50,883 nt of DNA from a virus. Lineage: Duplodnaviria > Caudoviricetes. Below the pieces are notes generated by a model, which was not told where the DNA came from, made no database searches, and saw only the letters and a list, made by a program, of their open reading frames with translations. Shown in pieces: positions 4,723-40,769 of this stretch. Within the stretch, counting starts at the first letter, position 1, and each line of letters begins with the position of its first letter. A program made the translations under genes and the position numbers. The stretch is taken from the IMG/VR virus record IMGVR_UViG_3300042923_000161, positions 1-50,883 of that record; one strand, given 5' to 3'.

Positions 4723-7700
4723 ATGGCTTATAAATTCACCGCCATTCCCGGCGTAGGGTCGGGAGTTCGAAGTCAACTCGCGCCGGGTACACCCTACCCG
4801 TTTCAAGCAGTATCCGGTATTGGTGCGAAGGTAGCGCCAACTATCAACTTCAGCCAGACAGACGTGGCCCCTACTTCATCTGTTTCAGGCAGAGCGCCCA
4901 CGGGTGCTGCTGCTGAACCATGGTGGATGACGGGCCTAAACATCTTGTCTGCGCCGGGAAAAATAGTAACAGAGCAGACCGCTAACTGGACAGACGATAA
5001 GTGGGGATGGAATGACCTTCCCGTATGGAACCAAGTGTCTAATTTCGGTAAAGGTGTAGGTACACAGTGGGACAATTGGAATGACGGACAGTTAACATTT
5101 GATGATATTCCAGTCATCAGCGGTCTAGCCAACATGGGCCGGGAGATGCCCGGATTCAGTCAGACCCTTGACAACTTAGGTGTTGAGAATGAACGTGCTA
5201 AGTTTTGGGGCGGTTTAGCGGGTGACATTGCGCTTGACCCATTAACATGGATCACATTCGGTGCAAGTTCTGCTGTTAAATCTGGTGGTAAAGCCATGGC
5301 AGGTGCTGCACGTGATGTGGCGGCTGATTATGGTATCCAGATGGGTAAGGTCACTAAGTCAGCCATCCGTAACCTACCTGATGCCGTTGACCATAAAGTG
5401 TGGAATGACTTGCTGGAGTCCGGTTCATCCTTCCGTGTAGCTGAAAATCAAGCGGACTATGCGAAGCAGCTTGTCAAGCAACGCATTCAGGATGCTGGTA
5501 AAGCAGGACGTGCCAAAGCGCAAAACGCTCTTATCAATATTGATGTGCCCTTCACCAAGACTACATACCAGATCGGGAAAAAGCCTGCAAGTTGGGCAAA
5601 ATCCTCACCAACTATCAAGGGACAGGGTGCTAATGCACTGAACACATTAATGACACGTAGCGGTATTGATCCATCAACTACCGGAGCGGAGTTCATCCAG
5701 AAAGCCCTAGGAAAAACTAATCTGGAAGATATCACCTTCCAAGAGTATAATTGGTTAAAAGGCGAATTGAAGAACTTCGGAGAGTTTGCAGCCAAAGCGC
5801 AGAATGCTGGTGACCCATTCACTTCAGCGAAGAACGGGTTGCAGTTTGGAACCAAGACAATCAGTCCGGGGAATACTCCAGCGCCGGGCAGTGCAGTAGA
5901 CGGCTTCAACTTCTCCAGCCGCTTCGTACCTGATATGGGTGGACGATCTGTGAACGGACAGAAGTTCTTTGACGCTGTTCGTGCAATCAATCCACGTCAA
6001 GTCGGTACCGCTGCTTCAGGTGGTTTGGTGAATGAAGCTGGTGGCCTGATCCAAGACACATTCAACCGGATCAGAAACAATCTGGGTAACCGTTTGCCAC
6101 AGACCGTGCAGGATGTTATGAGACAAGCTGAAGACTTCAGCCCTAACGATCAACGGGCACTGGAATATGTGCTTGAAGGAGAGTTCCCGACAGGATTCGA
6201 CATGAACTCTTTTGATGCTACTAAAGTCTACCGCGCTGCGGAAACCTTGCGTACACACTATGATGACATGGCAAAATCTGAAGGACTCGCTGGTGTTCTG
6301 GACAGTACTCGCGGAGGTTATGCACCGCACGTTGTCAACCGTTCACCTGAGAAGGTCGCAGAGGTGCTTCAGAAGTATGCTGATGATCCTGAGTTGCAGA
6401 ATCTAGCGAAGGTTTCAGCAAGTAACAGCTTCAACCAGTCACGTAAAGGGTTCAAGTCATTCGCTCAGTTGGACAACTATATTGCGGGTATCGGACAGAA
6501 GATTGCAGCAGAGACTGATCCCGCTGAAATTGCCAAGCTTCAAGCGAAGATGGATGATGTTTCAGGCATCTTCGAACGTGATCCATTCAAGGCATTCCAG
6601 AAGCGTCTGTATAAGAGTTACCGGGTTCGTGAATTGGGTGATCTGTACAAGACGATGAAGGATGACGGCTTGCTGATGGAGCCAGACATGGCTACTTATG
6701 ATGAAGCGTTGTATGTTGCGCTGAATGCGTCTGAAGCAAAACGCTTGAATGTTCCGAACGGTACAGTGATGCACCGGGAAGTGAAGGATGCTTTGATGCA
6801 AGCCGATAAGATATTCACGAATGATGGTATGAACAAATTCGTGGAGAAGGTCACGTCCATAACAAACATCTGGAAGGGCTTGACCACTACGATTCGTCCA
6901 GTCCATCACTTGAACAACCTTGTCGGAAACATCTTCAACAACACGCTGGCTGGTGTAGAGGTCGGCAGCTACAAACGGGCCATGCAGACTCTGAACCGTG
7001 TGAGCCGTGGCAAGCCGAAGCAAGAAGACCTTGAACTGATGGAACTGGCTATGAAGAACGGTATCTTTGGACAAGGTCACTCTGATGAGTACCGCAGAAT
7101 CTTCGGTGATACTCCAGCAAAGGGTATCCGTAAAGCAGAGGACTTCGTACAGAACAACCGTGTGACCAGCTTCATGCGTAGATGGTTGGGCGACACCACA
7201 GATAACTGGAGCCGACTTGCACACTTTGAATCCGTTCTGAATAAGACCGGAGACGCGAAGCTTGCTGCTGACTCCACACGCAAGTTCTTGTTCAACTACG
7301 GTGAGCACACAGGTATGGATAGAACCATCCGGTTGGCTATTCCTTTCTGGACGTGGACAAAGAACAACATCCCGCTTCAACTGGAACAGCTTATGAAGCA
7401 GCCGCGCTACTATCAAACGTATCTCAGACTGCAAGACGCTTCTTATGAGTCTCAGGGACTGGATCGTCAAGACCAGCGTGATTTCGTGCGGGACGCATAC
7501 TTTGCAACACCATGGGGAACAGCACGTAACCCACGCGCACCGATCACAGACCTGAATAACCTCAGCAGCTTCCCAGAAGCGCTAAAATTCCTTGTTAACA
7601 GTGCATCACCACTTGTCAAGACTCCATTCGAACAAGTGGCAGGTAAGTCTTTCTTTACAGGAATGCCAATCGATAACCAGTGGGAGTACGCATTACAACA

Positions 7701-8320: not shown

Positions 8321-8769
8321 TCAGCGTGACAGACCTTTTGCTGCTATCAGTATATGTCTTGACATTCATTGTTGCGGCTTACATTTCAGTCAATCGGGTC
8401 AAGTACTTCATTGAACGGTGCCGCAAAGGGAATATATCTGTATTCGTTCTAGGTGCAATCATATTTGTAAACTCATACTCACTAAGCATGATTTCAGCTT
8501 TCAGTACACGCTTGAGGTCATCTCTTGAACTGGTTGATCATGCAGGGTCTGTCATCACCACCTATCTGTGGACTGTATCGCAGATAGGGTGCTTGATTGG
8601 TATCTTACTGGTATGTATCAATGTCGTCACTAATTACTACGATCTGGCTATAGTGCTAGGGAAACGGAGGTACTTAAATGGGAACACTTCAGGGACTGCT
8701 GCACAAGTCATCGGGACAGACAGCGTGGTTGAACCCGGCAGTGAAGTTCGCAACGGAGAAACTGATTGA
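8317..8769 (+). CDS. Three-TM membrane protein (lysis cluster)
   Basis: Three hydrophobic segments; 3' end overlaps the endolysin start. Confidence 0.6.
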   Translation: MISVTDLLLLSVYVLTFIVAAYISVNRVKYFIERCRKGNISVFVLGAIIFVNSYSLSMISAFSTRLRSSLELVDHAGSVITTYLWTVSQIGCLIGILLVCINVVTNYYDLAIVLGKRRYLNGNTSGTAAQVIGTDSVVEPGSEVRNGETD

Positions 8770-9475
8770 ACGCTGCTTTAATCAAGGCATTGAGATTCGG
8801 ATCACACACGGTTACCGCTCTCCAGCCGAACAACAAGCGCTGTACAATCAAGGACGGTACGGAAACCCACCACCTATTGTAACCAACGCACCACCGGGAC
8901 GATCCAACCACAACTATGGACTGGCTATCGACTTCGTACTGCTCAAAGGTGTCTATGATATGAAGATTGACACAGACGGCAATAGCATTGCTGACTGGAT
9001 TGACGTTGTGACACACGCCAAAATGTTAGGTTTCACATGGGGTGGAGACTGGAAGTCCTTCAAAGACTACCCACACTTTGAAATGACATTCGGCTTGACT
9101 GTGGATCAGCTTCAGGCAGGACGTAAGCCAACAGCAGCCCAAGAACAGGCCGTCATTAACAAAATTAAAGCACAGGAGGTCTTACCCGTGGATGATAAAC
9201 GTGTTGAATTGTTAGAAGCCAAAGTTGCCACACTCTCAGACGCAGTGAATGCCCTGAATAAGCGCGTTAACATCGAGTCCAATCAAACGGTACCGAAGAC
9301 ATACGAAAAGGCCGTCATCGCAGCCAAGGCAGCAGGAGCGATCACGACAAGCAATGACAAGTCCAAAGCGGAACTGAACATGATTCAGAAGGATTACAAT
9401 CAAGGCTTCTATCACCCAGATTTTATTAAGTCTATGGAGAAATACAGACCTAAGAAGGAGGAGGATTCCAAATGA
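8678..9475 (+). CDS. Endolysin, M15-family (CwlK-like L-Ala-D-Glu) peptidase
   Basis: GYRS..EQ.ALY.QGR, S.HNYGLAID and WGGDW..FKDYPHFE motifs; GGAGG RBS. Confidence 0.92.
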   Translation: MGTLQGLLHKSSGQTAWLNPAVKFATEKLIERCFNQGIEIRITHGYRSPAEQQALYNQGRYGNPPPIVTNAPPGRSNHNYGLAIDFVLLKGVYDMKIDTDGNSIADWIDVVTHAKMLGFTWGGDWKSFKDYPHFEMTFGLTVDQLQAGRKPTAAQEQAVINKIKAQEVLPVDDKRVELLEAKVATLSDAVNALNKRVNIESNQTVPKTYEKAVIAAKAAGAITTSNDKSKAELNMIQKDYNQGFYHPDFIKSMEKYRPKKEEDSK

Positions 9476-9678
9476 ACTGGAAGCAGAAATTAGGAAGCCG
9501 CAAGTTCTGGAGTCTACTCGCGGCGTTGGCAGTGGCAGTCTTGACAGCGTTTGGAGCCGGGGAGGACAACGCAGTCAAGATTACCGGGATTATTGCAGCA
9601 GTCGGGGCCTGTGTCGTGTACATGCTTGCTGAAGCAGTGGTTGACAAGAACCGCAACGACTCTGATACGGATAATTAA
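9472..9678 (+). CDS. Holin (two TM)
   Basis: MNWKQKLGSRKFW...Y.LAE..VD pattern, directly after the endolysin. Confidence 0.85.
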   Translation: MNWKQKLGSRKFWSLLAALAVAVLTAFGAGEDNAVKITGIIAAVGACVVYMLAEAVVDKNRNDSDTDN

Positions 9679-9681
9679 AGC

Positions 9682-9719
9682 AAAAGACCGGAGCCTAAAC
9701 AACTGGCTTCGGTCTTTTT
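9682..9719. terminator. Bidirectional terminator between the convergent arms
   Basis: AAAAGACCGGAGCC-loop-GGCTTCGGTCTTTTT. Confidence 0.85.
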
Positions 9720-10045
9720 GGTACTTCACCTATAGGGGTTGTTGCAGCTTCCCACGGGGTCCAATTCAACTCTCTGATACGATGTTCCAATCTTTCAGCA
9801 CCTATGCCACGTTGCCAAGCCACGTGATAGGATGCAGGGTTTATGTCTTTGTCAGGCGTATGTTCTACAGATGATGGCATTACGTATGTGTCAGGTGGCC
9901 TTTTCATACTTCTAACTCTCTTCGTTACAGCTTCTTTGATGCTCCAATTTTGATAGTTGACACGTGCGTATACACGGTTACGGCTGATCCCGTTCTCCAG
10001 CGCCTTCTTGTAATCCGACTCTTGGATCTTTTTTCGCTTTTTCAT
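9695..10045 (-). CDS. Putative DNA-binding protein with repeated A.ENGI...Y.R....W...EA.T.P units
   Basis: Two copies of the unit; similar to the N-terminal half of 36098..36718. Confidence 0.65.
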   Translation of the reverse strand: MKKRKKIQESDYKKALENGISRNRVYARVNYQNWSIKEAVTKRVRSMKRPPDTYVMPSSVEHTPDKDINPASYHVAWQRGIGAERLEHRIRELNWTPWEAATTPIGEVPKRPKPVV

Positions 10046-10430
10046 ACAGTCTGATACCCTCCTGTAAGCTGTCAAGTGCTTTCTTCAAGTCCTCCAGCCC
10101 GTTCTTCTTCTCATGCCGGGCTACGTACTTCAGTACATTTCCCAAATGGAACCCAATAGCTTGTTGCGGGTTCATGTTCGCTTCAATGAATTGCCATGGA
10201 TCAATACCGCCGCTGTGATAATGGTTCGGTTTGAAGTTGCGTCTGTACTCTTCAAGGTCTTTTGTAGTAATGCCTAAGCTTGTAGATATAGGCTTCAACT
10301 CTGAACCATGTACAAATTCCCGTGAACCACCCGGATATTCAATTTGATAATCTCCACAACCTGCATCACCCACAACCATGCAAACATGACCTCTGTAGGT
10401 GTGTGTTGGTTTAAATTCCCTAGTTGGCAT
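9978..10430 (-). CDS. DUF3310 / SaV-like domain protein
   Basis: PNHY.SGGID...GF.LGNVLKYV.R...KNG.EDLKKA. Confidence 0.85.
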   Translation of the reverse strand: MPTREFKPTHTYRGHVCMVVGDAGCGDYQIEYPGGSREFVHGSELKPISTSLGITTKDLEEYRRNFKPNHYHSGGIDPWQFIEANMNPQQAIGFHLGNVLKYVARHEKKNGLEDLKKALDSLQEGIRLYEKAKKDPRVGLQEGAGERDQP

Positions 10431-10587
10431 TTGTAACTTCCTCCTTGTACATAATTGCGTAGTATTTGCGTGTTCCCCAATTGCTGAAGTTCCATCCTCG
10501 CCGTTTCAGTGAATATCCTTGCGCCTTACGATCTGCAATAACCTTATCCATTTCCTTTTCAGAGAACGCGGTCACTGTAACGGACAT
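10420..10587 (-). CDS. Hypothetical protein (55 aa)
   Basis: MSVTVTAFSEKEMDKVIADRKAQGY...; fills the gap between its neighbours. Confidence 0.6.
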   Translation of the reverse strand: MSVTVTAFSEKEMDKVIADRKAQGYSLKRRGWNFSNWGTRKYYAIMYKEEVTNAN

Positions 10588-10592
10588 TTCCC

Positions 10593-11078
10593 TCATTTCT
10601 TGGCCCCGTAACGCAGGTAATGCAGACCGTGCCTGATAGCGTCCCTTTCATGGATTACAGACGGCTGACCATTGATTAGGTGGTTGCGGCCTTTCTTTGT
10701 GGCGACTCCCGTATTCACCAGCACTGCATCCGTGAACCGCTGCTTGATGGATGGGTCTTGCAGTACAAATTCAATGCCCTTCTCCCATGCCATCATACGC
10801 AGATAGCCGATCAGTTGTGGAGTTTCCAGACTGCTGTAGCTTTGCGCTCCAGCTTTTGATGGTTGCAGCTTGTACGACTCACAAACGATAACATCCATAG
10901 GAAAGTGATTCACAGTACGCCACACGTTAAACCAGTACGACTCCATAGAAGAGAAGTCTTCAGCTTCAACTCTTCCAAACTGCCACACTTTATCATATTC
11001 AAAGCGTGCAATCCCCGTTGTACCCTTTCCTTCCCGGTCACTGAAGTTCCCGCTTGGGTCAATTGCCAATATCCTCAT
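10593..11078 (-). CDS. RuvC-like Holliday junction resolvase
   Basis: ILAIDPSG...TTGIA, VIVCESY and HERDAIRH (RNase H fold). Confidence 0.8.
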   Translation of the reverse strand: MRILAIDPSGNFSDREGKGTTGIARFEYDKVWQFGRVEAEDFSSMESYWFNVWRTVNHFPMDVIVCESYKLQPSKAGAQSYSSLETPQLIGYLRMMAWEKGIEFVLQDPSIKQRFTDAVLVNTGVATKKGRNHLINGQPSVIHERDAIRHGLHYLRYGAKK

Positions 11079-11103
11079 TGGTAAAACCTCCCTTAATGCT
11101 TGT

Positions 11104-11132
11104 ATCGTATCATGTTAAATATTTAATGTCAA
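11104..11132 (-). promoter_or_regulatory. Sigma-A promoter
   Basis: TTGACA-N17-TACGAT. The spacer holds the palindrome TTAAATATTTAA. Confidence 0.75.
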
Positions 11133-11189
11133 CGGGTAGGTATATCTACGTTCATTCCTGCGTAAGCTGTAGCAAAGGAGTGATGAACA

Positions 11190-12431
11190 ATGTTTATCCT
11201 ATCAGCCGCAGGTGCTGCAATGATTGCTACTTCAGCGATTGGGCTTCACCGTAACATGCCAAACAACCACTTGAAGATTATTGTCCGCAAGTATCTGGAA
11301 GCCAACAAATTGGACGGTGTCCGGGTGACACGGGTCCACCGCAGAAGTACTCACGTCTACAGCATGGAATTGTTGCTGCCTTACAACATGACAGCCGACA
11401 AGATCCAAGACCACGTGCCCGGATTCGAACAGGTCACCAGTTCACACGTTCACTTTGTGTACTCAGGCGGCCCACGTTGCCGTCTGGACTTCGGTTTCAG
11501 TCAGTTCAAGGCTAACATGCCCTTCAACCGTTTGGAGCCGCTACAGCCCCTCAGAGTCCCGCTGTACTCACCGTTCGGTGTTCGGTATATCGACTTCACT
11601 GAGGAAACCAGTTGTCATATGCTGCTTGGCGGTGCAACCCGGATGGGTAAAACAGCATTGTTGCGCTTGATAGCTACCTTGCTTGTAGTCGGCACAGACG
11701 GGAAAATCGTCCTCAAGTTAATAGACAACAAAGTCAATGATGTATACATGTTCCAGAATATCCCACAAGTGGACATTGCTGAAACACAAGATGAAGCCCT
11801 TGACATCCTGATGGAAGCCATTCGTGAATCTGTCATGCGGAAGAACCTGCTGAAGCAGCATAATGACTGCATTGACATGAAGGAGTTCAGACAGAAGCAT
11901 CCCGGTGAAGCTTCAGCATTCCCGCCGTACTTTGTGGTAATTGATGAGTATGGACGCTTTGCAGATAACCCGGACATTCAGAAGTGTGTAGAGCAGTTGG
12001 TCGAAACCGCTGGATACGTGGATATGCATATGATCATTGCCAGCCAGCGTCCAGACGCACAGACAGTGCTGAAAGCACGGATCAAGGCGAATCTGACCAC
12101 CCGTGTATGCTTCACAACAACTGATGAAGCCAATAGCAAGGTTGTACTTGACATTCCAGACGCTTCCCGCCTTGGGAAGATACAAGGCCGGGCCGTATTG
12201 ATGGACGGTTTCCCTGAAGTGGTGCAGGTTCCATTCCTCAGCACCTTGGACGCAAAGGATATGCTTAAATCATACGTTAAGGAGCGTGAGTCAAATGACT
12301 CCAAGAGACGGGATGTTGTTGAAAGTTTTGAACCACTTCAGGGTTTTGAACCGCTGTCAGGTGGAGAAGATGATCTTCCCAAACCTAAAAAGCGCAACAC
12401 AAACGGCAAATCGCGTCCTAAAAAGGCTTGA
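11190..12431 (+). CDS. FtsK/SpoIIIE-family ATPase
   Basis: N-terminal hydrophobic anchor, Walker A GGATRMGKT, Walker B VVIDE, ASQRPDA and GRA motifs. Confidence 0.9.
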   Translation: MFILSAAGAAMIATSAIGLHRNMPNNHLKIIVRKYLEANKLDGVRVTRVHRRSTHVYSMELLLPYNMTADKIQDHVPGFEQVTSSHVHFVYSGGPRCRLDFGFSQFKANMPFNRLEPLQPLRVPLYSPFGVRYIDFTEETSCHMLLGGATRMGKTALLRLIATLLVVGTDGKIVLKLIDNKVNDVYMFQNIPQVDIAETQDEALDILMEAIRESVMRKNLLKQHNDCIDMKEFRQKHPGEASAFPPYFVVIDEYGRFADNPDIQKCVEQLVETAGYVDMHMIIASQRPDAQTVLKARIKANLTTRVCFTTTDEANSKVVLDIPDASRLGKIQGRAVLMDGFPEVVQVPFLSTLDAKDMLKSYVKERESNDSKRRDVVESFEPLQGFEPLSGGEDDLPKPKKRNTNGKSRPKKA

Positions 12432-12843
12432 GCGGGATGGTTATATCCTTCAGATTCCGCAGCGCCGTGATCGTCCGTACCTTTATATGCCTAACCCGGC
12501 GAAAATGCACCACCAGTCATCAAAACTGGAGCATTTCTTGGGGCTCGCGGACATCTACCTTCAGTTTGGAAAACCTGTCACCTTTGAAATTGAACCAGAT
12601 ATCTGTGAAAAGTACAGACCGGATGCCTACATGGTCTTTAGGGATCGGCACATACTCATTGAGTACCAACGATCCATCATCAGTCAAAGAAGAATGCAGG
12701 ACAAAGTAGACCGATTCATGGAGTCCTATACGCAGGGCCATCATAAGTGCCGGGAGATGTGCATTGTCAGCAACTTCAAATACAACGTCAGCCACCCCAA
12801 AGGTTTCGCAGTCCACCAAATAGAAAAAGCCCCCGGCGCTTAA
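12295..12843 (+). CDS. Replication-relaxation (Replic_Relax) family protein
   Basis: wHTH N-terminus (RD..L..L..FRVL..ANRVLKRL..DG), then H.L...D, PDA and IEYQRS; overlaps the end of FtsK. Confidence 0.82.
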   Translation: MTPRDGMLLKVLNHFRVLNRCQVEKMIFPNLKSATQTANRVLKRLERDGYILQIPQRRDRPYLYMPNPAKMHHQSSKLEHFLGLADIYLQFGKPVTFEIEPDICEKYRPDAYMVFRDRHILIEYQRSIISQRRMQDKVDRFMESYTQGHHKCREMCIVSNFKYNVSHPKGFAVHQIEKAPGA

Positions 12844-12853
12844 CCGGGGGTTT
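12824..12853. terminator. Terminator between convergent genes
   Basis: AAAAAGCCCCCGG-loop-CCGGGGGTTT. Confidence 0.75.
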
Positions 12854-12855
12854 AC

Positions 12856-13029
12856 TCATCCAAACATGACGTACAGTCCAGTTCCTCCAAAGAAGAACAA
12901 GAACATAAACGCGATGTACAAAATTGTAGTTGTTCTGCTGTCTTGGTCACTTTCAACCGCTGCCTTGACAACTCCAAAGCAGCTTATGAGCCAAACCACA
13001 ATCAGTATGAATCCGAATACAGTCTTCAC
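12856..13029 (-). CDS. Small two-TM membrane protein (57 aa)
   Basis: GTG start; MKTVFGFILIVVWLISCFGVV...ILYIAFMFLFFFGG. Confidence 0.6.
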   Translation of the reverse strand: MKTVFGFILIVVWLISCFGVVKAAVESDQDSRTTTILYIAFMFLFFFGGTGLYVMFG

Positions 13030-13039
13030 ATGCAGTCAC

Positions 13040-13504
13040 CTACTTTCCAGTGTGACCAAGACCGCCTTCACCACGTACTGTTTCATCCAATGTGTCCGTC
13101 TCTTCCAGTTCTGTAGGTGGCACGTATTTGAAAACGATCTGGCCTATTCTATCACCTTTGCTAAATGCTATGGGCTTGCTGGTGAAATTATACAACAAAA
13201 CTTTGACTGGCCCTCTGAAGTCACTATCAATCGTTCCGCTGAAAGCATCCATACCCTTGTTGAACGCCAGCCCGGAACGACCCTTCACATCACCCACAAT
13301 ATTCTCAGGGATTGCAAAGTGTACCAACGTATTAACTTGGTAACGCCCAACATCCACCGCAGCAGTTCCACGGCCTTGTGTTGCTGGAACAATAAAGTCG
13401 ATTGGGCTGTACAGATCGTACCCCGCTGCTCCTTCAGTTCCCTTCGTTGGCTTTGTGCCACCCTCTTTTACCACGATCTTGATCTTAGTCACCTTTGTTG
13501 ACAT
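13040..13504 (-). CDS. dut: Trimeric dUTPase
   Basis: AAGYDL, GRSGLA, GTIDSDFRG, GDRIGQ and RGEGGLGHTG motifs. Confidence 0.95.
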   Translation of the reverse strand: MSTKVTKIKIVVKEGGTKPTKGTEGAAGYDLYSPIDFIVPATQGRGTAAVDVGRYQVNTLVHFAIPENIVGDVKGRSGLAFNKGMDAFSGTIDSDFRGPVKVLLYNFTSKPIAFSKGDRIGQIVFKYVPPTELEETDTLDETVRGEGGLGHTGK

Positions 13505-13515
13505 GTTAATTCCTC

Positions 13516-15900
13516 CTATGCAGCGATTTTGTAGGCTTTCTTCTCAGCCCATGATGTTTCAGTGTAATCTGGCTCTACTACCAACGGAACCATAAGCTTA
13601 GGCGTGTACATCATCATTTCACAAAGCTTCGGCACGATCCATTGCTCATCATCAAAGATTTTGAAGATCAATTCATCGTGGATCGGACCCATCATGTATG
13701 ACTTCAGCCCATTCTCTTCGAAAAACGCATCAAGTATGAGTGTCTTTTCCTTCAGGTCATCAGCACATGTTCCTTGGATGCAGTAATTCGATCCGGTGTA
13801 GTACTTGCGCGGATTCGTAATATAGTAACGTCTTCCATAAAGGTTGACGATATACCCTTTCTTCTGGAACGCACGTTCAATTCCGTTTTGGTACCCGTCA
13901 CGAATGACAGGGAATGACTGAATAAAACCGTCATCAATGGCGTATGCTTGGTCTAGTGTGATATCTAGGACTTCGGCTGACATTTCAGGTCCGCCGCCGT
14001 ACACCTTCATGAAGTTGTAGCGTTTACCAATGTTACGCCAGAACTTGTAAACATCCTTGGCGACCTTAGCCGGGTCCATTCCCATGATCTTCATGGCTTC
14101 TTCAGCCGTTGCGCTGTGTACGTCTGTAGGAACCCATGGCTTTTTAGTCTCTGGTACAACCCACGCCGACCATCCTTGTTTCAGTTGGTCTTCCCAATAG
14201 ATATCAGGAGCGCCGGGACGCATCTCAGACCAGCGCATCTTGTCCGCTTCAGTCTTGTAGTCATAAATCTCACCAGTTTCAGAGTGCACACACTTGAACG
14301 GCATGTAGGCCCGGCACAGGTTAAGGTCACCACCGAATGGGATCGTGTAGTGGGCCTGTGTCCGAAGTTCTACCTGTGAAAAGTCAAGGAAGAACATCTT
14401 TGACCCGTCATCATCGTTGACGATGGCTTTACGCGGGAAGTACAGTTCTTCAGCAGGGTCACAGCCGTTTTCACCCGGAGTCCATGATCCGCTGTTAGCT
14501 TTACGCTGCTCATCACCCTTCATCGTCAGGAGTGGTTCCCGTGGCATCTGCTGGAAGTCACCTGAGTAGCGTCCGGTTACTGGGTTGAACTGGTTCAGGC
14601 TGGTATAGATACGTCCGTCATAGTCGGACATCTCTATATGCTTCAGCAGGTATGTAGTCAGCCACTTTTCAACTGACCGCAGCTTCATGATGATCGGTGC
14701 CAGCTTGTCTCCAGCAAGTGCGAACTTCTTCAATGCAGCAGCGTCTGTAGCTTCAGGTGTCTTACCAAGCCGCTTTGCGTATATGCGTTTGATCAGTGCG
14801 TGTTGCCCTGTGCTGAACTCAGGGTGTGTGTCTCCAGTCCAGTTAGGTGCTGCTTCTACCCACATCTTGTGGCGTAGTTCGTCCCGGTACGCCGTGACTG
14901 CTTCAGCACATCCGATCAGGTAATCACGGTCAGCCTTGAACCCTACACGTGTCATCTTGAAGGTGACGTTTAGGTTCTTGAACTCTCTGTCAAGCACAGA
15001 TTGTTGCTCTTTGGCCTTGATGACAGGCATACCCATTTCAACAAGCATGTCGGTGATCACTGTATCTGAAGCTACATAAGGTGATATAATCTCATGCGGA
15101 ACGTCTGTGTAGTTCGGTTCCGGGTACTCCTTACGCCAGTGCACGAATACATCCATGACTTCATCAGGGATAGGTTCCCTCCCCTTATTCATAGCGTCCT
15201 CAAAGCGTGTGATTCCCCACCCGTGCGGCTTCAAAAACGATATCAGTATCTTACGATCTGCTGTAGCTTTTGCCTTCAACCAAGACTTGACAGCCTTTTC
15301 ATAACGATCTGCGGTTGGATCAATGTACTTCACGGCAACTGCTTTCAATGCCAGCTTATCGCCGCCGTGTCGTGGTGACAATGACTCAAATGTGGAGCGC
15401 AGAACGCCCATGGTGTCACCCCAGTTCTTAATGGAGTTGACCCAACCATTCCCGGCAACGTTGGCTGACATGTGCATTTCAAACAGTGCGTTGTGTGCGT
15501 AGATCAGTTCGACCATTCCAGCCATGTCCTTCAGGTAGTTCAGATTCTTCAGGTTGACCGGGAATACGAACGCTATGCGCTGCGTAGCAGTGTGCCAAGC
15601 TACCGAAGCGATTGTTGGCATGTCCTTACGTAAGTGCAGCCCCGTGGACTCCACGTCATAGTTGATATACCCCGGCTTGATCGTCAAGCCCTTCAGGTAG
15701 TCCCTCGCAAACTTCAGACTCTCCAGATACTTGACTTCATAGACTGTCTCACCCATACGTACCTTGCCTTGCTCATTGACATCTTCGATGGTGACTTGGT
15801 TAACGTCCGGTAGTTCACGGGGAAAGCACTTGTTACAAGGCTGTCCCCATTCGTTACCTTCGCAGCTACACGACTTTTCAACTTCTTCTCCCCAACTCAT
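13516..15900 (-). CDS. DNA polymerase family A with 3'-5' exonuclease
   Basis: Exo YDVESTG / AHNALFE / YVASD; TGRYS; motif A DFSQVELR; motif B R..GKRYNF..VYGGG; motif C IHDEL. Confidence 0.95.
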   Translation of the reverse strand: MSWGEEVEKSCSCEGNEWGQPCNKCFPRELPDVNQVTIEDVNEQGKVRMGETVYEVKYLESLKFARDYLKGLTIKPGYINYDVESTGLHLRKDMPTIASVAWHTATQRIAFVFPVNLKNLNYLKDMAGMVELIYAHNALFEMHMSANVAGNGWVNSIKNWGDTMGVLRSTFESLSPRHGGDKLALKAVAVKYIDPTADRYEKAVKSWLKAKATADRKILISFLKPHGWGITRFEDAMNKGREPIPDEVMDVFVHWRKEYPEPNYTDVPHEIISPYVASDTVITDMLVEMGMPVIKAKEQQSVLDREFKNLNVTFKMTRVGFKADRDYLIGCAEAVTAYRDELRHKMWVEAAPNWTGDTHPEFSTGQHALIKRIYAKRLGKTPEATDAAALKKFALAGDKLAPIIMKLRSVEKWLTTYLLKHIEMSDYDGRIYTSLNQFNPVTGRYSGDFQQMPREPLLTMKGDEQRKANSGSWTPGENGCDPAEELYFPRKAIVNDDDGSKMFFLDFSQVELRTQAHYTIPFGGDLNLCRAYMPFKCVHSETGEIYDYKTEADKMRWSEMRPGAPDIYWEDQLKQGWSAWVVPETKKPWVPTDVHSATAEEAMKIMGMDPAKVAKDVYKFWRNIGKRYNFMKVYGGGPEMSAEVLDITLDQAYAIDDGFIQSFPVIRDGYQNGIERAFQKKGYIVNLYGRRYYITNPRKYYTGSNYCIQGTCADDLKEKTLILDAFFEENGLKSYMMGPIHDELIFKIFDDEQWIVPKLCEMMMYTPKLMVPLVVEPDYTETSWAEKKAYKIAA

Positions 15901-22226: not shown

Positions 22227-22556
22227 TTACAACACATCCCTTACATATTGTTCGTTCTCATGTCTCATTTCAGCTTCTTGCTGAAGCAGTTCGTTGTTGT
22301 ACTGTTCAATGACATTTGCGGCGTAACCGAACGCCATCTCAACACATTTCTGATCCAGCACATCGCTGACCAGCTTACGATACTCATTAATGTCTAAGTC
22401 CATTTGAAGTAAAAAGTCCAGTTCAGCGCTTACAGCTTCCACACAATCAGGTACCGAATCGAAGTCCTTGTTGCGGAATACGTGCGGTGTTGCATCCAAT
22501 TTGCCCACGATACGGTCAGCCACCTGCTGTGCGATTACCTCAACGTTGAATCTCAT
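22227..22556 (-). CDS. Hypothetical protein
   Basis: GGGAGG RBS before ATG 22556; first gene after the promoter. Confidence 0.7.
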   Translation of the reverse strand: MRFNVEVIAQQVADRIVGKLDATPHVFRNKDFDSVPDCVEAVSAELDFLLQMDLDINEYRKLVSDVLDQKCVEMAFGYAANVIEQYNNELLQQEAEMRHENEQYVRDVL

Positions 22557-22589
22557 AGTTAAAACCTCCCAGTGGTGTTTGATGTACAC

Positions 22590-22618
22590 ATCATAACATA
22601 TTGAATATTTAATGTCAA
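22590..22618 (-). promoter_or_regulatory. Sigma-A promoter
   Basis: TTGACA-N17-TATGAT; shares 18 identical bp with the 11104-11132 promoter region. Confidence 0.8.
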
Positions 22619-22626
22619 CGGACAGA

Positions 22627-29470: not shown

Positions 29471-30169
29471 TTATCTATCTTCTTTCTTCAGGAACGGATT
29501 CTGCCAGATGTTCGCTTGGTACGTTGTGATTGCTGCTTCTCTATGTAGCTGATCTTTGAAGTCGTTCCAAGCTTGGCGCAGCATCGGTTTATCTTGTTTC
29601 TTTCCTTGTGTCCCAAGTTCCGGGTATACCTGTCTAAACAACCTTGTCGCCTGTGATTTATTCAACTTGTCAACCTCCCATTTTGGTCTGAGCCGTTTAT
29701 ACACATGCTCCACAGCATCTGCAATTTGTGAAGCCATGTCATACACCAGTGACAGCCGTGTATTCTGAAGCACGAAGTATTCCATGAAGCCGCCCACATT
29801 GACAATTGCCTTAATGTGTGCATCACCTACGGCTGGAAGAGTCTTGCCCACACCTGCGCCGGGCTTCAACGGCCCAATCTCACATATCGCTTTACCTACA
29901 CTAGATGACTGACCAAGACAAGCATCAATTGCCAGTGTGTAGCGCTTTGGCAATGTGTTCAAGATACCCTCTTCCATACTCACCGCATGGACTGGCTTGT
30001 GCAGTGTTCCATACACATTCCTAATCCCTCTTTGCTGAAGCATAAGCCCAACCATCGGGCCTAAGCTGTCTCCCGTGCTGCGATCTGTGCCGATACATAC
30101 GATGTTCATTTCAGATATGTGACGTGGGACGATTGCATCCAGTTCTTTAGTCAGTGACATGTCAGTCAA
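29471..30169 (-). CDS. yyaC: YyaC-family spore protease with a C-terminal extra domain
   Basis: CIGTDRSTGDSLGPMVG, YGTL..PVHA, AIDACLG, PGAGVGK.LPAVGD and LQNTRLSLV. Confidence 0.92.
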   Translation of the reverse strand: MTDMSLTKELDAIVPRHISEMNIVCIGTDRSTGDSLGPMVGLMLQQRGIRNVYGTLHKPVHAVSMEEGILNTLPKRYTLAIDACLGQSSSVGKAICEIGPLKPGAGVGKTLPAVGDAHIKAIVNVGGFMEYFVLQNTRLSLVYDMASQIADAVEHVYKRLRPKWEVDKLNKSQATRLFRQVYPELGTQGKKQDKPMLRQAWNDFKDQLHREAAITTYQANIWQNPFLKKEDR

Positions 30170-32399: not shown

Positions 32400-33000
32400 C
32401 GTTACTTTGCGAATGTTTCAGGTTAACGGGTTCAAAGCTGACATGACTGTAAAAACTGGATACTGATGGCAATTTCTGCAACACTAATAGTGTTTCATGT
32501 TGCTGTAGGGTGTAACTTGTTTCCGAATTCATGTAAGCCAAGCGGGAATCCTGTAACATTTGGCGTGTTCACGTGTGTTGTTACGTTGTGGTGCTTTGTA
32601 AAATTAATAATGTTGCATTGAAAGTTGGAACGACTTATTACGGAAAAGATGAAAATTGGAAATTAGTTTCGGTTAAGCCAATCACCAAATCGCGGATGGC
32701 TCTCTCTAAAACCATAATGCATTGAAAACGAAAACCGTTATTTTCATTACTTTCATAGTGTTTTCATTGAATTTAGGTCTGTAGACCCCTTGTTTTCATG
32801 AAATGAGTTGATCCTTTCATTTCGTTTGCAATGAATTAGCTTTTTCAAAATTTGAAAATGAAAATCGGAAAATCGCTTACCTGTACCAAACTAACCGTTG
32901 TAACATAACTTAACCTAATAATAACCAATACTAATAATAATATACATAATAATAATAATAATAATAATAATAATCTTGATAATGTTCTATATAATGCTTT
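32400..33000. other. Putative replication origin (non-coding, iterated motifs, AT-rich tract)
   Basis: No credible ORF; many TGAAA/TTTCA and TGTAAC/TGTTGCA/TGTTTCA motifs; (TAA)9 tract. Confidence 0.5.
32947..32973. repeat. (TAA)9 microsatellite
   Basis: Read directly from the sequence. Confidence 0.9.
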
Positions 33001-33021
33001 AGTGACTTACAGTATGAAGCG

Positions 33022-38889: not shown

Positions 38890-40428
38890 ATGAATGACGC
38901 ACATGTCCCATTCGTGGGGCTTACGTGTTCACATTGCAGGTCGGGTAAATATATCGTCCCACCGGATGAACATCCAAGTTACTGCCTGTGCGAAGCCTGC
39001 GGTGCGATGCAGCTTACCTACATACCCCAAGACTACCAAGCTGAGTTCCACGCAACGCCGCACAAGTTCGAAAAGGATAAAGAGGGTAACGACCATATTA
39101 GAATGCAGATCATTGGCGTGTTCGGTGGTTACGGTTCAGCCAAGTCCACAGCTAGTCTCCATGAGGTGTTTTTGCGGTGCTTGGAGAACCCCCGGTCGGT
39201 GACACTCATCACCGCACCAACGCTGCAACTCCTAAAACGGACAAGCATCAAGACGCTGCTGGATGAGATCATCCCACCGCCACTTTTGGAAAGCTTCAAC
39301 AAGTCCGACATGGAGTTCAAATTGGTCAACGGTCACTCCATTTATGCGATCCCATCCGATGATGAAGGTAAACTTCGTTCCATCAACGCCGGGCAGGTCC
39401 ATATGGAGGAATCGTCAGAGATCAAGCGGACAATCTATGACCAGCTTCTGACCCGTCTTCGGAATAAGAACATGACAAACCGTGCATTATTCGCATGTTC
39501 TAACCCGGAATTAACGTGGATCAAGACGGTCATCGTGGACAATGAGAAGAGGTCCAACCCTAAACATCCTGAACACGCTGACTATGCGGACAACATGATA
39601 TGCTACATCTGGAAGACGGAATTGAACAAGTACCTGCCGCATGACTTTATTGCAACGAACAGCAAGGGTAAGCCAGAGTGGTGGGTACGGAAGTACATGT
39701 ATGGATCGTTCGAAGCTACGGACGGTGCAGTGTATCCAGAGTTCGGCTCCACAGTCATTCCAGACATTCCTGAGTTCGATAAAGTGTCCAAGGGGTGGAC
39801 GAAAATGTTCTCTCTTGACCACGGTCTGCGGAACCCTACGGTTTTGCTTGGTGCTGCGCTAAATCCGAACGATGGTTGTCTCTATATTTACCACGAATAC
39901 TACAAGGCCAACACGCTTGTTCCCAAGCATGCCGAAGCGATGAAGCCTGTCATCAATGCGGTACCTTCAGGACTTATCTGGTTCATGGTTGCCGATCCAT
40001 CTATACGGAATAAGACTGACCCAATTAACGGTAAGTCGGTTTTGGGTCTGTATCAGGAGTACAACTTATACTTCAGCCCCGGAAACAACGATATTGAAAC
40101 AGGACTCCTTCGTGTCAACTCATACATTGAACGTGGTAAGCTGAAGGTTTTTGAGAGTTGTTTCAACCTGATCCGTGAAATGTCGGGGTACAGGTTCCCA
40201 GAAGTGTCCATGGACGATGACAAGAATCTGGACGAAAAGCCGCTGAAGAAGGACGACCATGCCCCGGATGCCTTGCGTTACATGCTCATGCGTTTACCGG
40301 AAGACCCGGATGATCTAAAGCAGCTATCGTTTTCACAACCGGACAGGTATAGTGTGGCCCGGCCTGTGGATTATGACCCAGACTTCGATGACGATGAAGT
40401 CAGCGATGACTATCTAAGCTATGTATAG
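38890..40428 (+). CDS. Terminase large subunit
   Basis: YQAEFH, GGYGSAKS, APTLQ, HMEES, SNP, DHG..NP, ADPS and DDHAPDALRY; N-terminal CxxC..CxxC. Confidence 0.93.
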   Translation: MNDAHVPFVGLTCSHCRSGKYIVPPDEHPSYCLCEACGAMQLTYIPQDYQAEFHATPHKFEKDKEGNDHIRMQIIGVFGGYGSAKSTASLHEVFLRCLENPRSVTLITAPTLQLLKRTSIKTLLDEIIPPPLLESFNKSDMEFKLVNGHSIYAIPSDDEGKLRSINAGQVHMEESSEIKRTIYDQLLTRLRNKNMTNRALFACSNPELTWIKTVIVDNEKRSNPKHPEHADYADNMICYIWKTELNKYLPHDFIATNSKGKPEWWVRKYMYGSFEATDGAVYPEFGSTVIPDIPEFDKVSKGWTKMFSLDHGLRNPTVLLGAALNPNDGCLYIYHEYYKANTLVPKHAEAMKPVINAVPSGLIWFMVADPSIRNKTDPINGKSVLGLYQEYNLYFSPGNNDIETGLLRVNSYIERGKLKVFESCFNLIREMSGYRFPEVSMDDDKNLDEKPLKKDDHAPDALRYMLMRLPEDPDDLKQLSFSQPDRYSVARPVDYDPDFDDDEVSDDYLSYV

Positions 40429-40439
40429 GGAGGTGCCAA

Positions 40440-40769
40440 ATGGATAATTACGTGTTCAACTACAATGATGGTACGTCTATGATGCTGGAGTTGACAGAGG
40501 ATCAGTGGCGTGTTGTGTCAGAAAGCTACTTTGACAGAACGCCCCGGATTCTTCTTGAAGGGATCGGTGTACTTGACATTCAGGACGTGCGATCTATCAT
40601 CAAGCAGAAGCCTGTACTCAATGAGAATCCATCATACAGTACGGAAATGACGCAAGAAGAGAAGGACTACATTGCACAGCAGCAGCAGTTCGAACAGTAC
40701 CTGAAAGAGAAGCGTGATTCTGATCTTGATGACCTTGACGATTCTGATTTTGACGGGAGTGATTTCTAA
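40440..40769 (+). CDS. Hypothetical protein
   Basis: GGGAGG RBS; lies between TerL and portal. Confidence 0.7.
   Translation: MDNYVFNYNDGTSMMLELTEDQWRVVSESYFDRTPRILLEGIGVLDIQDVRSIIKQKPVLNENPSYSTEMTQEEKDYIAQQQQFEQYLKEKRDSDLDDLDDSDFDGSDF

Follow-up and report, generated by a model that had tools for sequence, protein, structure and literature searches.

A plus-strand gene pair in the replication arm

The 50,883 bp IMG/VR record IMGVR_UViG_3300042923_000161 (hereafter the window, which denotes the whole stretch of DNA analysed) represents a complete virus with end repeats, a phage whose host probably forms spores. It carries a plus-strand unit of two genes, one coding for an FtsK/TcpA-like ATPase of 413 residues (11190-12431) and the other for a Replic_Relax protein of 182 residues with a nuclease core (12295-12843). 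Profiles, alignments and structure models together provide a well-supported molecular picture of a membrane-tethered FtsK/TcpA-type pump which is translationally locked to a winged-helix nuclease.

The unit is placed between a RuvC-like gene and the genes for dUTPase and DNA polymerase, within a minus-strand arm that extends from 9.7 to about 32 kb and holds the replication genes. These code for the RuvC-like protein, dUTPase, a family A DNA polymerase, a primase-helicase, a second helicase, a single-stranded DNA-binding protein, a Sak4-like annealing protein, and an exonuclease. An earlier note on this DNA had described an overlapping pair of FtsK/SpoIIIE and replication-relaxation genes as the only plus-strand genes in the minus-strand arm of a phage that lacks an integrase, and these claims were borne out. 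The map of open reading frames (ORFs) and the AT skew, which is positive over 11-13 kb only, agree on the orientation, and from about 9.7 to 32 kb all other long plus-strand ORFs coincide with a minus-strand operon or with a longer ORF on the minus strand. Both annotations passed a hidden Markov model check (PF01580 FtsK_SpoIIIE, 28.6 bits at a cut-off of 24; PF13814 Replic_Relax, 41.7 bits at a cut-off of 25.3, for the ORF 12286-12843). The two genes overlap by 137 nt in different frames. The profiles for tyrosine and serine recombinases (PF00589 and PF00239) gave no match in the complete 50,883 bp record.

The FtsK/TcpA-like ATPase

The ATPase gene is preceded by the Shine-Dalgarno sequence AAAGGAG (11174-11180). 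Its product matches phrog_1358 with an E-value of 8.9e-44 (PHROG category host takeover). The Walker A motif GGATRMGKT (residues 147-155; 11628-11654), the Walker B residues D252-E253, and the QRPD motif at residues 286-289 are invariant in an alignment of 27 sequences (A1). According to the structure model, a hydrophobic helix (residues 2-21; 11193-11252) is followed by a short helix, an alpha/beta domain that is alpha-like in FtsK terms (residues 45-135), a RecA-type motor, and a tail, of which residues 367-413 are disordered. The tail motif E-P-L-Q-G-F-E-P...G-E-D-D-L-P (EPLQGFEPLSGGEDDLP plus a basic end) is recognizable down to 33% sequence identity.

The N-terminal helix is presumed to be a membrane anchor, based on the model and on hydropathy (Kyte-Doolittle mean of 1.86 over the first 19 residues). 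The protein thus has a single hydrophobic helix where strict FtsK/SpoIIIE translocases have a multi-span N-terminal membrane domain. It also appears to be devoid of a gamma domain, with no further Pfam match at E-values up to 0.01. The top structural match is TcpA, the coupling protein of plasmid pCW3 (6o1x, E-value 1.3e-21), and the comparison with TcpA entry 6o1z gave template modelling (TM) scores of 0.68/0.77 at a root-mean-square deviation of 3.4. FtsK motors match nearly as well (TM scores 0.65-0.69) and are followed by type VII secretion ATPases and HerA. The motor domain also matches the defence-ATPase models SspH and mad8 from PADLOC.

In relatives of the ATPase which lack the N-terminal helix, the gene for a small membrane protein abuts upstream. 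It codes for 50 residues in locus L012 (4791-4943) and for 106 residues in the plasmid locus L063 (2015-2335). Small upstream genes were also seen in loci L003, L014, L016, L017, L021, and L062-L066. The small ORFs were read from ORF lists. The helix is either fused or supplied by a separate small gene, so the membrane link of the ATPase is kept in cis or in trans. That the anchor is fused in the clade of the window and separate elsewhere indicates gene fusion or fission within the cassette.

The Replic_Relax nuclease

The ORF of the nuclease could begin at 12286, but we assign the start codon to the ATG at 12295 because the full-length homologues start with MTPRD, MTTARD, or MTDRD and because an AAGGAG sequence (12280-12285) is located 9 nt ahead of this ATG. 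Besides PF13814, the ORF matches CoiA_nuc and phrog_2190, which bears the label "replication initiation protein".

The structure model (mean predicted local distance difference test score, pLDDT, of 93.7) shows a winged helix (residues 1-66) joined to a PD-(D/E)XK core. The nuclease motif P109-D110 ... E123-x-Q125 (12619-12669) is invariant in an alignment of 20 sequences (A3), as are H80, D86, E100, and K137. Foldseek matches include NucS/EndoMS, the XPB partner Bax1, CARF-nucleases, and winged helices or regulators of the MarR type. The published fold assignment for the PF13814 family agrees with our model (PMC3424549). A predicted complex of ATPase residues 25-413 with the nuclease scored 0.00, with the mark at 0.32, which counts neither for nor against an interaction.

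Overlap and conservation of the gene pair

The overlap (12295-12431) is dual-coding: one frame specifies the tail motif of the ATPase, the other the first helices of the winged-helix domain. Although a scan of viral contigs with the single protein found no relatives, an alignment-based scan did. A nuclease profile search covered 21 loci (19 viral contigs, Cytobacillus phage Bfsp1, and Geobacillus phage PK5.1), and in all 21 of them the nuclease gene directly follows the ATPase gene on its 3' side. With starts placed by profile, the genes overlap by 89-293 nt with an identical frame offset in 17 of 17 other loci, while plasmid versions overlap by just 0-11 nt. The two genes are inseparable.

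Most of the IMG/VR loci L005-L022 likewise have the pair on the opposite strand, between a minus-strand (RuvC-like) gene of about 160 residues and the gene for the polymerase. The arrangement is thus old and stable rather than the result of a recent insertion. In phage Bfsp1 (L003), the deposited gene after the ATPase gene starts at locus position 6908 and is called hypothetical. Profile alignment sets its start at 6833 and identifies the product (6833-7390) as a Replic_Relax protein, so that a phi29-like podovirus also carries the cassette.

Two sets of repeats are associated with the overlap of the window. An 18-nt tandem repeat with two copies lies within it (12325-12361, plus strand), and the start codon of the nuclease gene is flanked by the two arms of an inverted repeat of 15 nt (12212-12226 with 12329-12343). 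A cis site of the nuclease and an RNA fold that couples translation are both conceivable, or the repeats may simply result from the repetition of the FEP/VLN peptide.

Transcriptional insulation of the unit

A G+C-rich hairpin spans the stop codon of the nuclease gene (12830-12850; fold energy -22.5, z-score -4.0). It was called as a terminator on the minus strand. Its T-run is good on that strand and poor on the plus strand (only TTT), which indicates that the hairpin serves both convergent transcripts. Hairpins with z-scores of -3 or below were found at the corresponding place in 11 of 18 loci examined. The nuclease of the window ends with (E)KAPGA (12828-12843), as do homologues P0002, P0004, P0005, P0008, and P0010, while P0001 ends with KDPGA. 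The codons for this end form the G+C-rich stem, so peptide end and hairpin appear to be mutually constrained.

A promoter scan of 9400-13700 detected six sigma-A-like sites, all on the minus strand and none on the plus strand. Both the terminator and the lack of a plus-strand sigma-A consensus upstream of the pair had been proposed from the sequence before, and both are confirmed. One of the six sites (TTGACA, 17-nt spacer, TG-TACGAT; 11104-11132; 10 of 12 matches, with the TG extension) restarts minus-strand transcription for the RuvC-like gene (10593-11078). The 32-nt stretch which contains it (11104-11135, TTGACATTAAATATT...) recurs with 88% identity at 22590-22621, upstream of the minus-strand gene 22227-22589, which suggests that promoters of the TTGACATTAAATATT type form a recurring class in the replication arm.

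The pair forms a transcriptional island, as it is flanked by a terminator and a restart promoter and lacks a vegetative promoter. The unit is an autonomous, counter-oriented operon.

A two-box promoter-like element upstream of the ATPase gene

A two-box element is located upstream of the ATPase gene on the plus strand (11140-11168) and ends 5 nt before its Shine-Dalgarno sequence. It consists of GTATATC (11140-11146), a 14-nt spacer, and CGTAAGCT (11161-11168). In the 92% relative L056, both boxes are identical to those of the window while the spacer differs at many positions with its length kept. Relatives at 60-63% identity show GAATAT(C/T)-N14-CATAGG(A/C/T)(A/T) or CATAGTCT at the homologous place. 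The ATATT-N14-CATA form is clearly recognizable among the relatives.

The sigma-E consensus is ZHATAXX-14-CATACAHT. Candidate elements were scored out of 15 against this consensus, and the consensus was checked only against five orthologues from one genome. The best sigma-E-type match lies 19-31 nt before the start codon in 13 of 17 distinct relatives, with 11-14 of 15 positions matching and a spacer of 14 or 15 nt. Compared to random windows, p-values for these 13 records are 0.001-0.044 each. Contigs L034 and L035 were counted once with L005 and L009, to which they are equal; the records are mutually related, so the counts are not independent. No significant match was obtained for the window, L011, L026, and L033. 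Even so, L026 has GAATATC-N14-CATAGGTA at the homologous place, as judged by eye, and L011 has TCATCTT-N14-CATATAGT ahead of its small upstream ORF. In more distant relatives, TCATxTT-N13/14-CATATAGT precedes the small gene that comes first, and in L012, L014, L016, L017, L019, and L021 one of CATATAGT, CATATATT, CATATCAT, or CATACATT stands just before the ribosome-binding site of that gene (listed without p-values).

The genes for SpoIID, SpoIVA, SpoIIP, SpoIIIAA, and SpoIIM are textbook sigma-E targets in Bacillus subtilis. The pattern is present ahead of all five orthologues in one Bacillaceae genome, with scores of 11-13 out of 15. The respective -35 and -10 boxes are TCATAAT and CATATGAT (SpoIID), GCATATT and CATAGATA (SpoIVA), GCATATC and CATAAGCA (SpoIIP), TCATACG and CATACATT (SpoIIIAA), and TCATGAA and CATACATT (SpoIIM); the spacer is 15 nt for SpoIVA and 14 nt for the others.

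Several other assignments were considered and rejected. A sigma-G reading fails on the distance from ATA to CATA, which is 16 nt rather than the 18 nt of this factor. An extracytoplasmic function (ECF)-type reading of the CGTA in the -10 box lacks an AAC-type -35 box 16-17 nt upstream (by eye). When CATATAGT is read as the sigma-A box TATAGT, the -35 box is poor, with two of six matches in L021 (by eye). The gaps ahead of late genes have sigma-A-type boxes (by eye), so that the two-box element is not the general late promoter of the phage.

The earlier note had pointed to a GTATA-N16 arrangement that loosely resembles sporulation-sigma promoters. A sporulation-type promoter gains comparative support from the boxes conserved in relatives, and the best parse has a 14-nt spacer instead of the N16 spacing that implied a forespore type. 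The motif of the window by itself is at chance level; it is meaningful only via its relatives. Judged from sequence comparison, the spacing of the element points to the mother-cell sigma-E type over the forespore types sigma-F/G.

Distribution among phages and plasmids

In tblastn searches with the nuclease of the window, 26 phage records matched, of which 20 are assigned to Bacillus, two to Geobacillus, and one to Cytobacillus. The remaining three are two "Staphylococcus" SpaA1 records and one "Stenotrophomonas" record. In identity and coordinates, the matches of the SpaA1 records equal that of Bacillus phage BceA1. The "Staphylococcus" and "Stenotrophomonas" host labels are doubtful. No near-identical DNA was found in the phage collection.

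The same query matched 345 plasmids, most of them from Bacillus (204) or Priestia (123). Geobacillus, Parageobacillus, Brevibacillus, Sutcliffiella, Paenibacillus, Mangrovibacillus, Cytobacillus, and Anoxybacillus are among the other genera listed. With a plasmid-type query, 347 plasmids were retrieved, and 125 with a query from a Geobacillus phage; the genera were the same. Among the genera listed for these three nuclease queries, all plasmid hosts are endospore-forming Bacillales. MOB-suite typing classified 225 of the 345 plasmids as non-mobilizable, 68 as mobilizable, and 52 as conjugative.

In the four plasmids that were read, the module consists of small membrane protein, ATPase, and nuclease, with a helix-turn-helix/XRE-type regulator upstream on the opposite strand. 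Iteron-like TACCAAAGTA repeats occur upstream of the modules in L063 and L065, and L066 has a single copy. Between the XRE-type gene and the cassette, TACCAAAGTA, TACCACGGTA, and their variants were located at 1639-2014 (L063), 1718-2008 (L065), and upstream of 128 (L066). The nuclease or the regulator may bind to these repeats.

The window also codes for a homologue of the spore protease YyaC on the minus strand (29471-30169; TIGR02841, 170 bits at a cut-off of 84.9; phrog_8268), which is a second sporulation-related gene of this phage. An extra C-terminal part of the protein matches phrog_336. As a guide to the host, YyaC proved uninformative, since 158 of 201 class-sample genomes match with 43-63% sequence identity.

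Spore entry as the favoured interpretation

In our interpretation, the unit is an insulated module for DNA transfer that most likely serves spore entry, with the mother cell as the source of the phage genome and the forespore as its destination; we assign this reading a probability of roughly one third. The ATPase would act as a membrane-anchored hexameric translocase for double-stranded DNA which has no DNA-recognition domain of its own. Recognition and processing would fall to the nuclease, whose PD-(D/E)XK centre is intact and whose class is labelled MOBC relaxase by conjugation software; it may attach to a site in the phage DNA and introduce a nick or a cut. The unit would be mostly silent in ordinary lytic growth and be switched on, via the sigma-E-type promoter, in the mother cell of a sporulating host. 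The pump would then export the phage genome into the forespore, and the integrase-less phage would survive inside the spore. The domains, the conserved pairing, the overlap, the promoter boxes, the terminator, and the host range of relatives are observations, whereas we infer which sigma factor acts, when the genes are expressed, what is transported, and in which direction.

Spore entry is favoured because of the insulated layout, the lack of a vegetative promoter, and the conserved promoter-like element of the mother-cell type. It is also favoured because relatives are confined to replicons of endospore formers, the phage has no integrase, and a YyaC homologue is present.

Several points weigh against this interpretation. 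The element of the window scores only 10 of 15, a value reached by random 70-nt windows with a p-value of about 0.5, and its -10 box reads CGTA where relatives read CATA. Matches with a score of at least 11 of 15 number 472 in the window compared to a mean of 486 in shuffled sequences. Sigma-K or an unknown phage factor may act instead of sigma-E. A sigma factor gene of the phage, sought as sigma-70 region 2 (PF04542), was not found in the record. A positioned sigma-E-like element is present in none of the four plasmid cassettes and was not found in Geobacillus phage PK5.1; the plasmid cassettes are differently regulated, beside a divergent XRE-type regulator. The single membrane helix contrasts with the several helices of SpoIIIE, and a route across the closed septum is not evident. 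Spo0A boxes are not enriched in the genome (seven found versus about eight expected), and no parS-like site was found in it. The restriction to spore formers could simply be due to tblastn, whose reach is limited within a single bacterial order. L056 comes from a 24-kb contig of a bin that bears the title of an uncultured Prevotella, and Prevotella does not form spores; this is most likely a mis-binned phage contig, unsuitable as host evidence. Finally, a review reports delayed-early expression during vegetative infection for the FtsK/SpoIIIE gene of phage Fah (PMC4113786).

A broader version of the spore-entry interpretation would make the cassette a dedicated spore-entry module of phages and plasmids alike. 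With a relaxase-like nuclease and a pump resembling a coupling protein, it would perform a conjugation-like transfer within one cell, timed by sigma-E together with the spoIIIA genes of the mother cell, and hand the genome to a channel across the forespore membranes after closure of the septum. This channel could be made by the pump or be provided by SpoIIIA-SpoIIQ, which has a secretion-system ancestry. We consider this version improbable as it stands.

The foremost competing explanation, which is nonetheless unlikely, is a role in replication or maintenance. The nuclease would serve as a resolvase or as an initiator that binds or nicks the origin, segregation or decatenation of daughter genomes would be the task of the ATPase, and the cassette would be a plasmid-type inheritance device retained by the phage. 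The phrog_2190 label, the location inside the replication arm between the RuvC-like gene and the dUTPase and DNA polymerase genes, and the iteron-like repeats ahead of plasmid cassettes are in line with this, as is the 15-kb plasmid pBH-BAT-15, which carries the cassette and has no annotated Rep gene (the PLSDB gene table being incomplete). Authors of phage genome papers group both proteins with plasmid replication and segregation (PMC9658697, PMC7685451, PMC11526630). Such labels are annotations rather than tests, however, and the phage already owns a polymerase, a primase-helicase, a helicase, a single-stranded DNA-binding protein, an annealing protein, and an exonuclease. An anchor that is kept whether fused or separate would be needless for a cytosolic initiator. 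A replication gene would also be expected to share the transcription programme of its neighbours rather than be counter-oriented without a sigma-A promoter.

Mobilization is somewhat less likely still. Under this explanation, a TcpA-type coupling protein and a MOBC-type relaxase would nick a site resembling an origin of transfer (oriT) and feed the type IV secretion system of a co-resident element, resulting in transfer from cell to cell independent of the phage receptor. Such a role fits the best structural match of the ATPase. It also fits the equation of PF13814 with MobC relaxases, which are paired with a coupling protein in streptococcal mobilizable elements in the same order, coupling protein before relaxase (PMC5357655). 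Plasmid pE81-53, which has a homologous pair, is listed in PLSDB as "mobilizable; relaxase MOBC", and 120 of the 345 plasmids with a homologue are typed as mobilizable or conjugative. Against this, the other 225 are non-mobilizable, and a wide clade of phages without an integrase has the pair as a fixed core feature, whereas a conjugative helper would be present only occasionally. The gene map of the record shows no secretion-system genes (no profile search was aimed at them), the promoter type does not fit conjugation, and no oriT was identified, the 18-nt repeat being the sole candidate.

Least likely is a role at the membrane during lytic growth (pulling in the remaining genome after injection, superinfection exclusion, or action on host DNA), for which the anchor of the ATPase, the DNA injection role proposed in the genome announcement of phage Pony (PMC3853050), the PADLOC matches SspH and mad8, and the PHROG category host takeover could be quoted, but entry needs very early expression while no sigma-A promoter lies ahead of the unit, the PADLOC matches concern a generic motor only while the nuclease matches no PADLOC defence model, and the cassettes on plasmids are left unexplained.

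Spore entry has been put forward before, as speculation, for FtsK homologues of phages. Published suggestions include forespore translocation or a control of sporulation (PMC4113786, PMC10294663, PMC3853047), and plasmid replication or segregation was suggested for the pair (PMC9658697). In the accessible parts of the literature retrieved for "Replic_Relax" or "replication-relaxation" together with FtsK and Bacillus, we found no functional experiment and no mention of a sporulation-type promoter. As far as our searches show, the comparative promoter evidence, the dual-coding overlap, and the cis-or-trans anchor are new.

Phage homologues of FtsK/SpoIIIE have appeared in genome papers since at least 2013, with the role given as unknown or as a guess. 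How integrase-less phages and low-copy plasmids secure a place in the small forespore is poorly understood. The 30-bp promoter-like element and the two-gene unit make the spore-entry idea concretely testable, and cultured phages with the cassette exist, among them 268TH007 and phi18-2 of B. subtilis and Bfsp1 of Cytobacillus; because of the overlap, the unit must be deleted as one. If the spore-entry interpretation is true, the unit represents a new class of inheritance device for mobile DNA in spore formers, which bears on the persistence of phages in soil, compost, and food plants and on the carriage of phages by spores.

Other features of the genome

The structural and lysis genes are on the plus strand, from about 34 kb through the end of the record to 9.5 kb. 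This late block includes the terminase (at 38890) and portal (at 40769) genes, and ORF 8678-9475 codes for a putative endolysin. Of the sequencing runs listed as sharing this DNA, none is recorded as RNA; one DNA run contains the entire stretch and may be its source, and the others contain small parts of it.

An AT-rich non-coding stretch (32726-33001; G+C content of 0.37 over 32-33 kb) is located close to the point where the minus-strand arm gives way to genes on the plus strand. It contains a TAA microsatellite of about 19 copies (32916-32974) and short GAAAATCG and TTACTTTCA repeats. The stretch is possibly an origin, a control region, or a genome end.

Comparison with known systems

The ATPase of the window shares the PF01580 domain, the Walker A and B motifs, QRPD, and the motor fold (TM scores as given above) with SpoIIIE, FtsK, and SftA. 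SpoIIIE has a multi-span membrane domain. The ATPase of the window differs from these proteins in having 413 residues, one N-terminal helix, no gamma domain, and an obligatory nuclease partner. That SpoIIIE moves DNA from the mother cell into the forespore is textbook knowledge and is also stated in PMC3853047.

TcpA from plasmid pCW3 of Clostridium perfringens (PDB 6o1w-6o1z) matches over about 360 columns, which include the domain before the motor. TcpA is FtsK-like and without a gamma domain, and it is membrane-anchored, as is predicted for the ATPase of the window. The two share only 18-19% sequence identity, and TcpA works with a full conjugation locus whereas none is apparent in the phage.

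MobB and MobC from CloDF13 are an example of a MOBC-type relaxase with its own coupling protein. In class 8 of the streptococcal integrative and mobilizable elements, the PF13814 gene directly follows the coupling-protein gene, which results in a compact pair as in the window (PMC5357655). The partner there is of the VirD4 type and is accompanied by a serine integrase, while the partner in the window is of the FtsK/TcpA type and is phage-borne.

In the TraB-clt system from Streptomyces, a single FtsK-like membrane pump moves the double-stranded DNA of its replicon from one compartment to another after recognition of a short repeat locus at or near its own gene. TraB has its own winged helix and does not need a nuclease, whereas recognition would reside on a separate protein in the window, with the 18-nt repeat (12325-12361) as no more than a candidate site.

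Both genes occur in the same order as in the window in phages RBClin15, 268TH007, phiCM3, and BtCS33 and in Geobacillus phages. They have repeatedly been annotated together in Bacillus phages and phage-plasmids (PMC11526630, PMC9476937, PMC9658697, PMC7685451, PMC3853050). The annotated operons mostly belong to temperate or plasmid-like elements and often show a divergent XRE regulator and a short overlap. In the clade of the window, in contrast, an integrase is lacking, the dual-coding overlap is long, the anchor is fused to the ATPase, and the promoter is sigma-E-like.

Entrapment of the virulent phage phi29 in spores uses the host factors Spo0A and Spo0J/parS together with binding sites on the phage genome. 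The ecological end would be alike, with a lytic phage persisting as DNA in the spore, but the phage of the window would bring its own machine.

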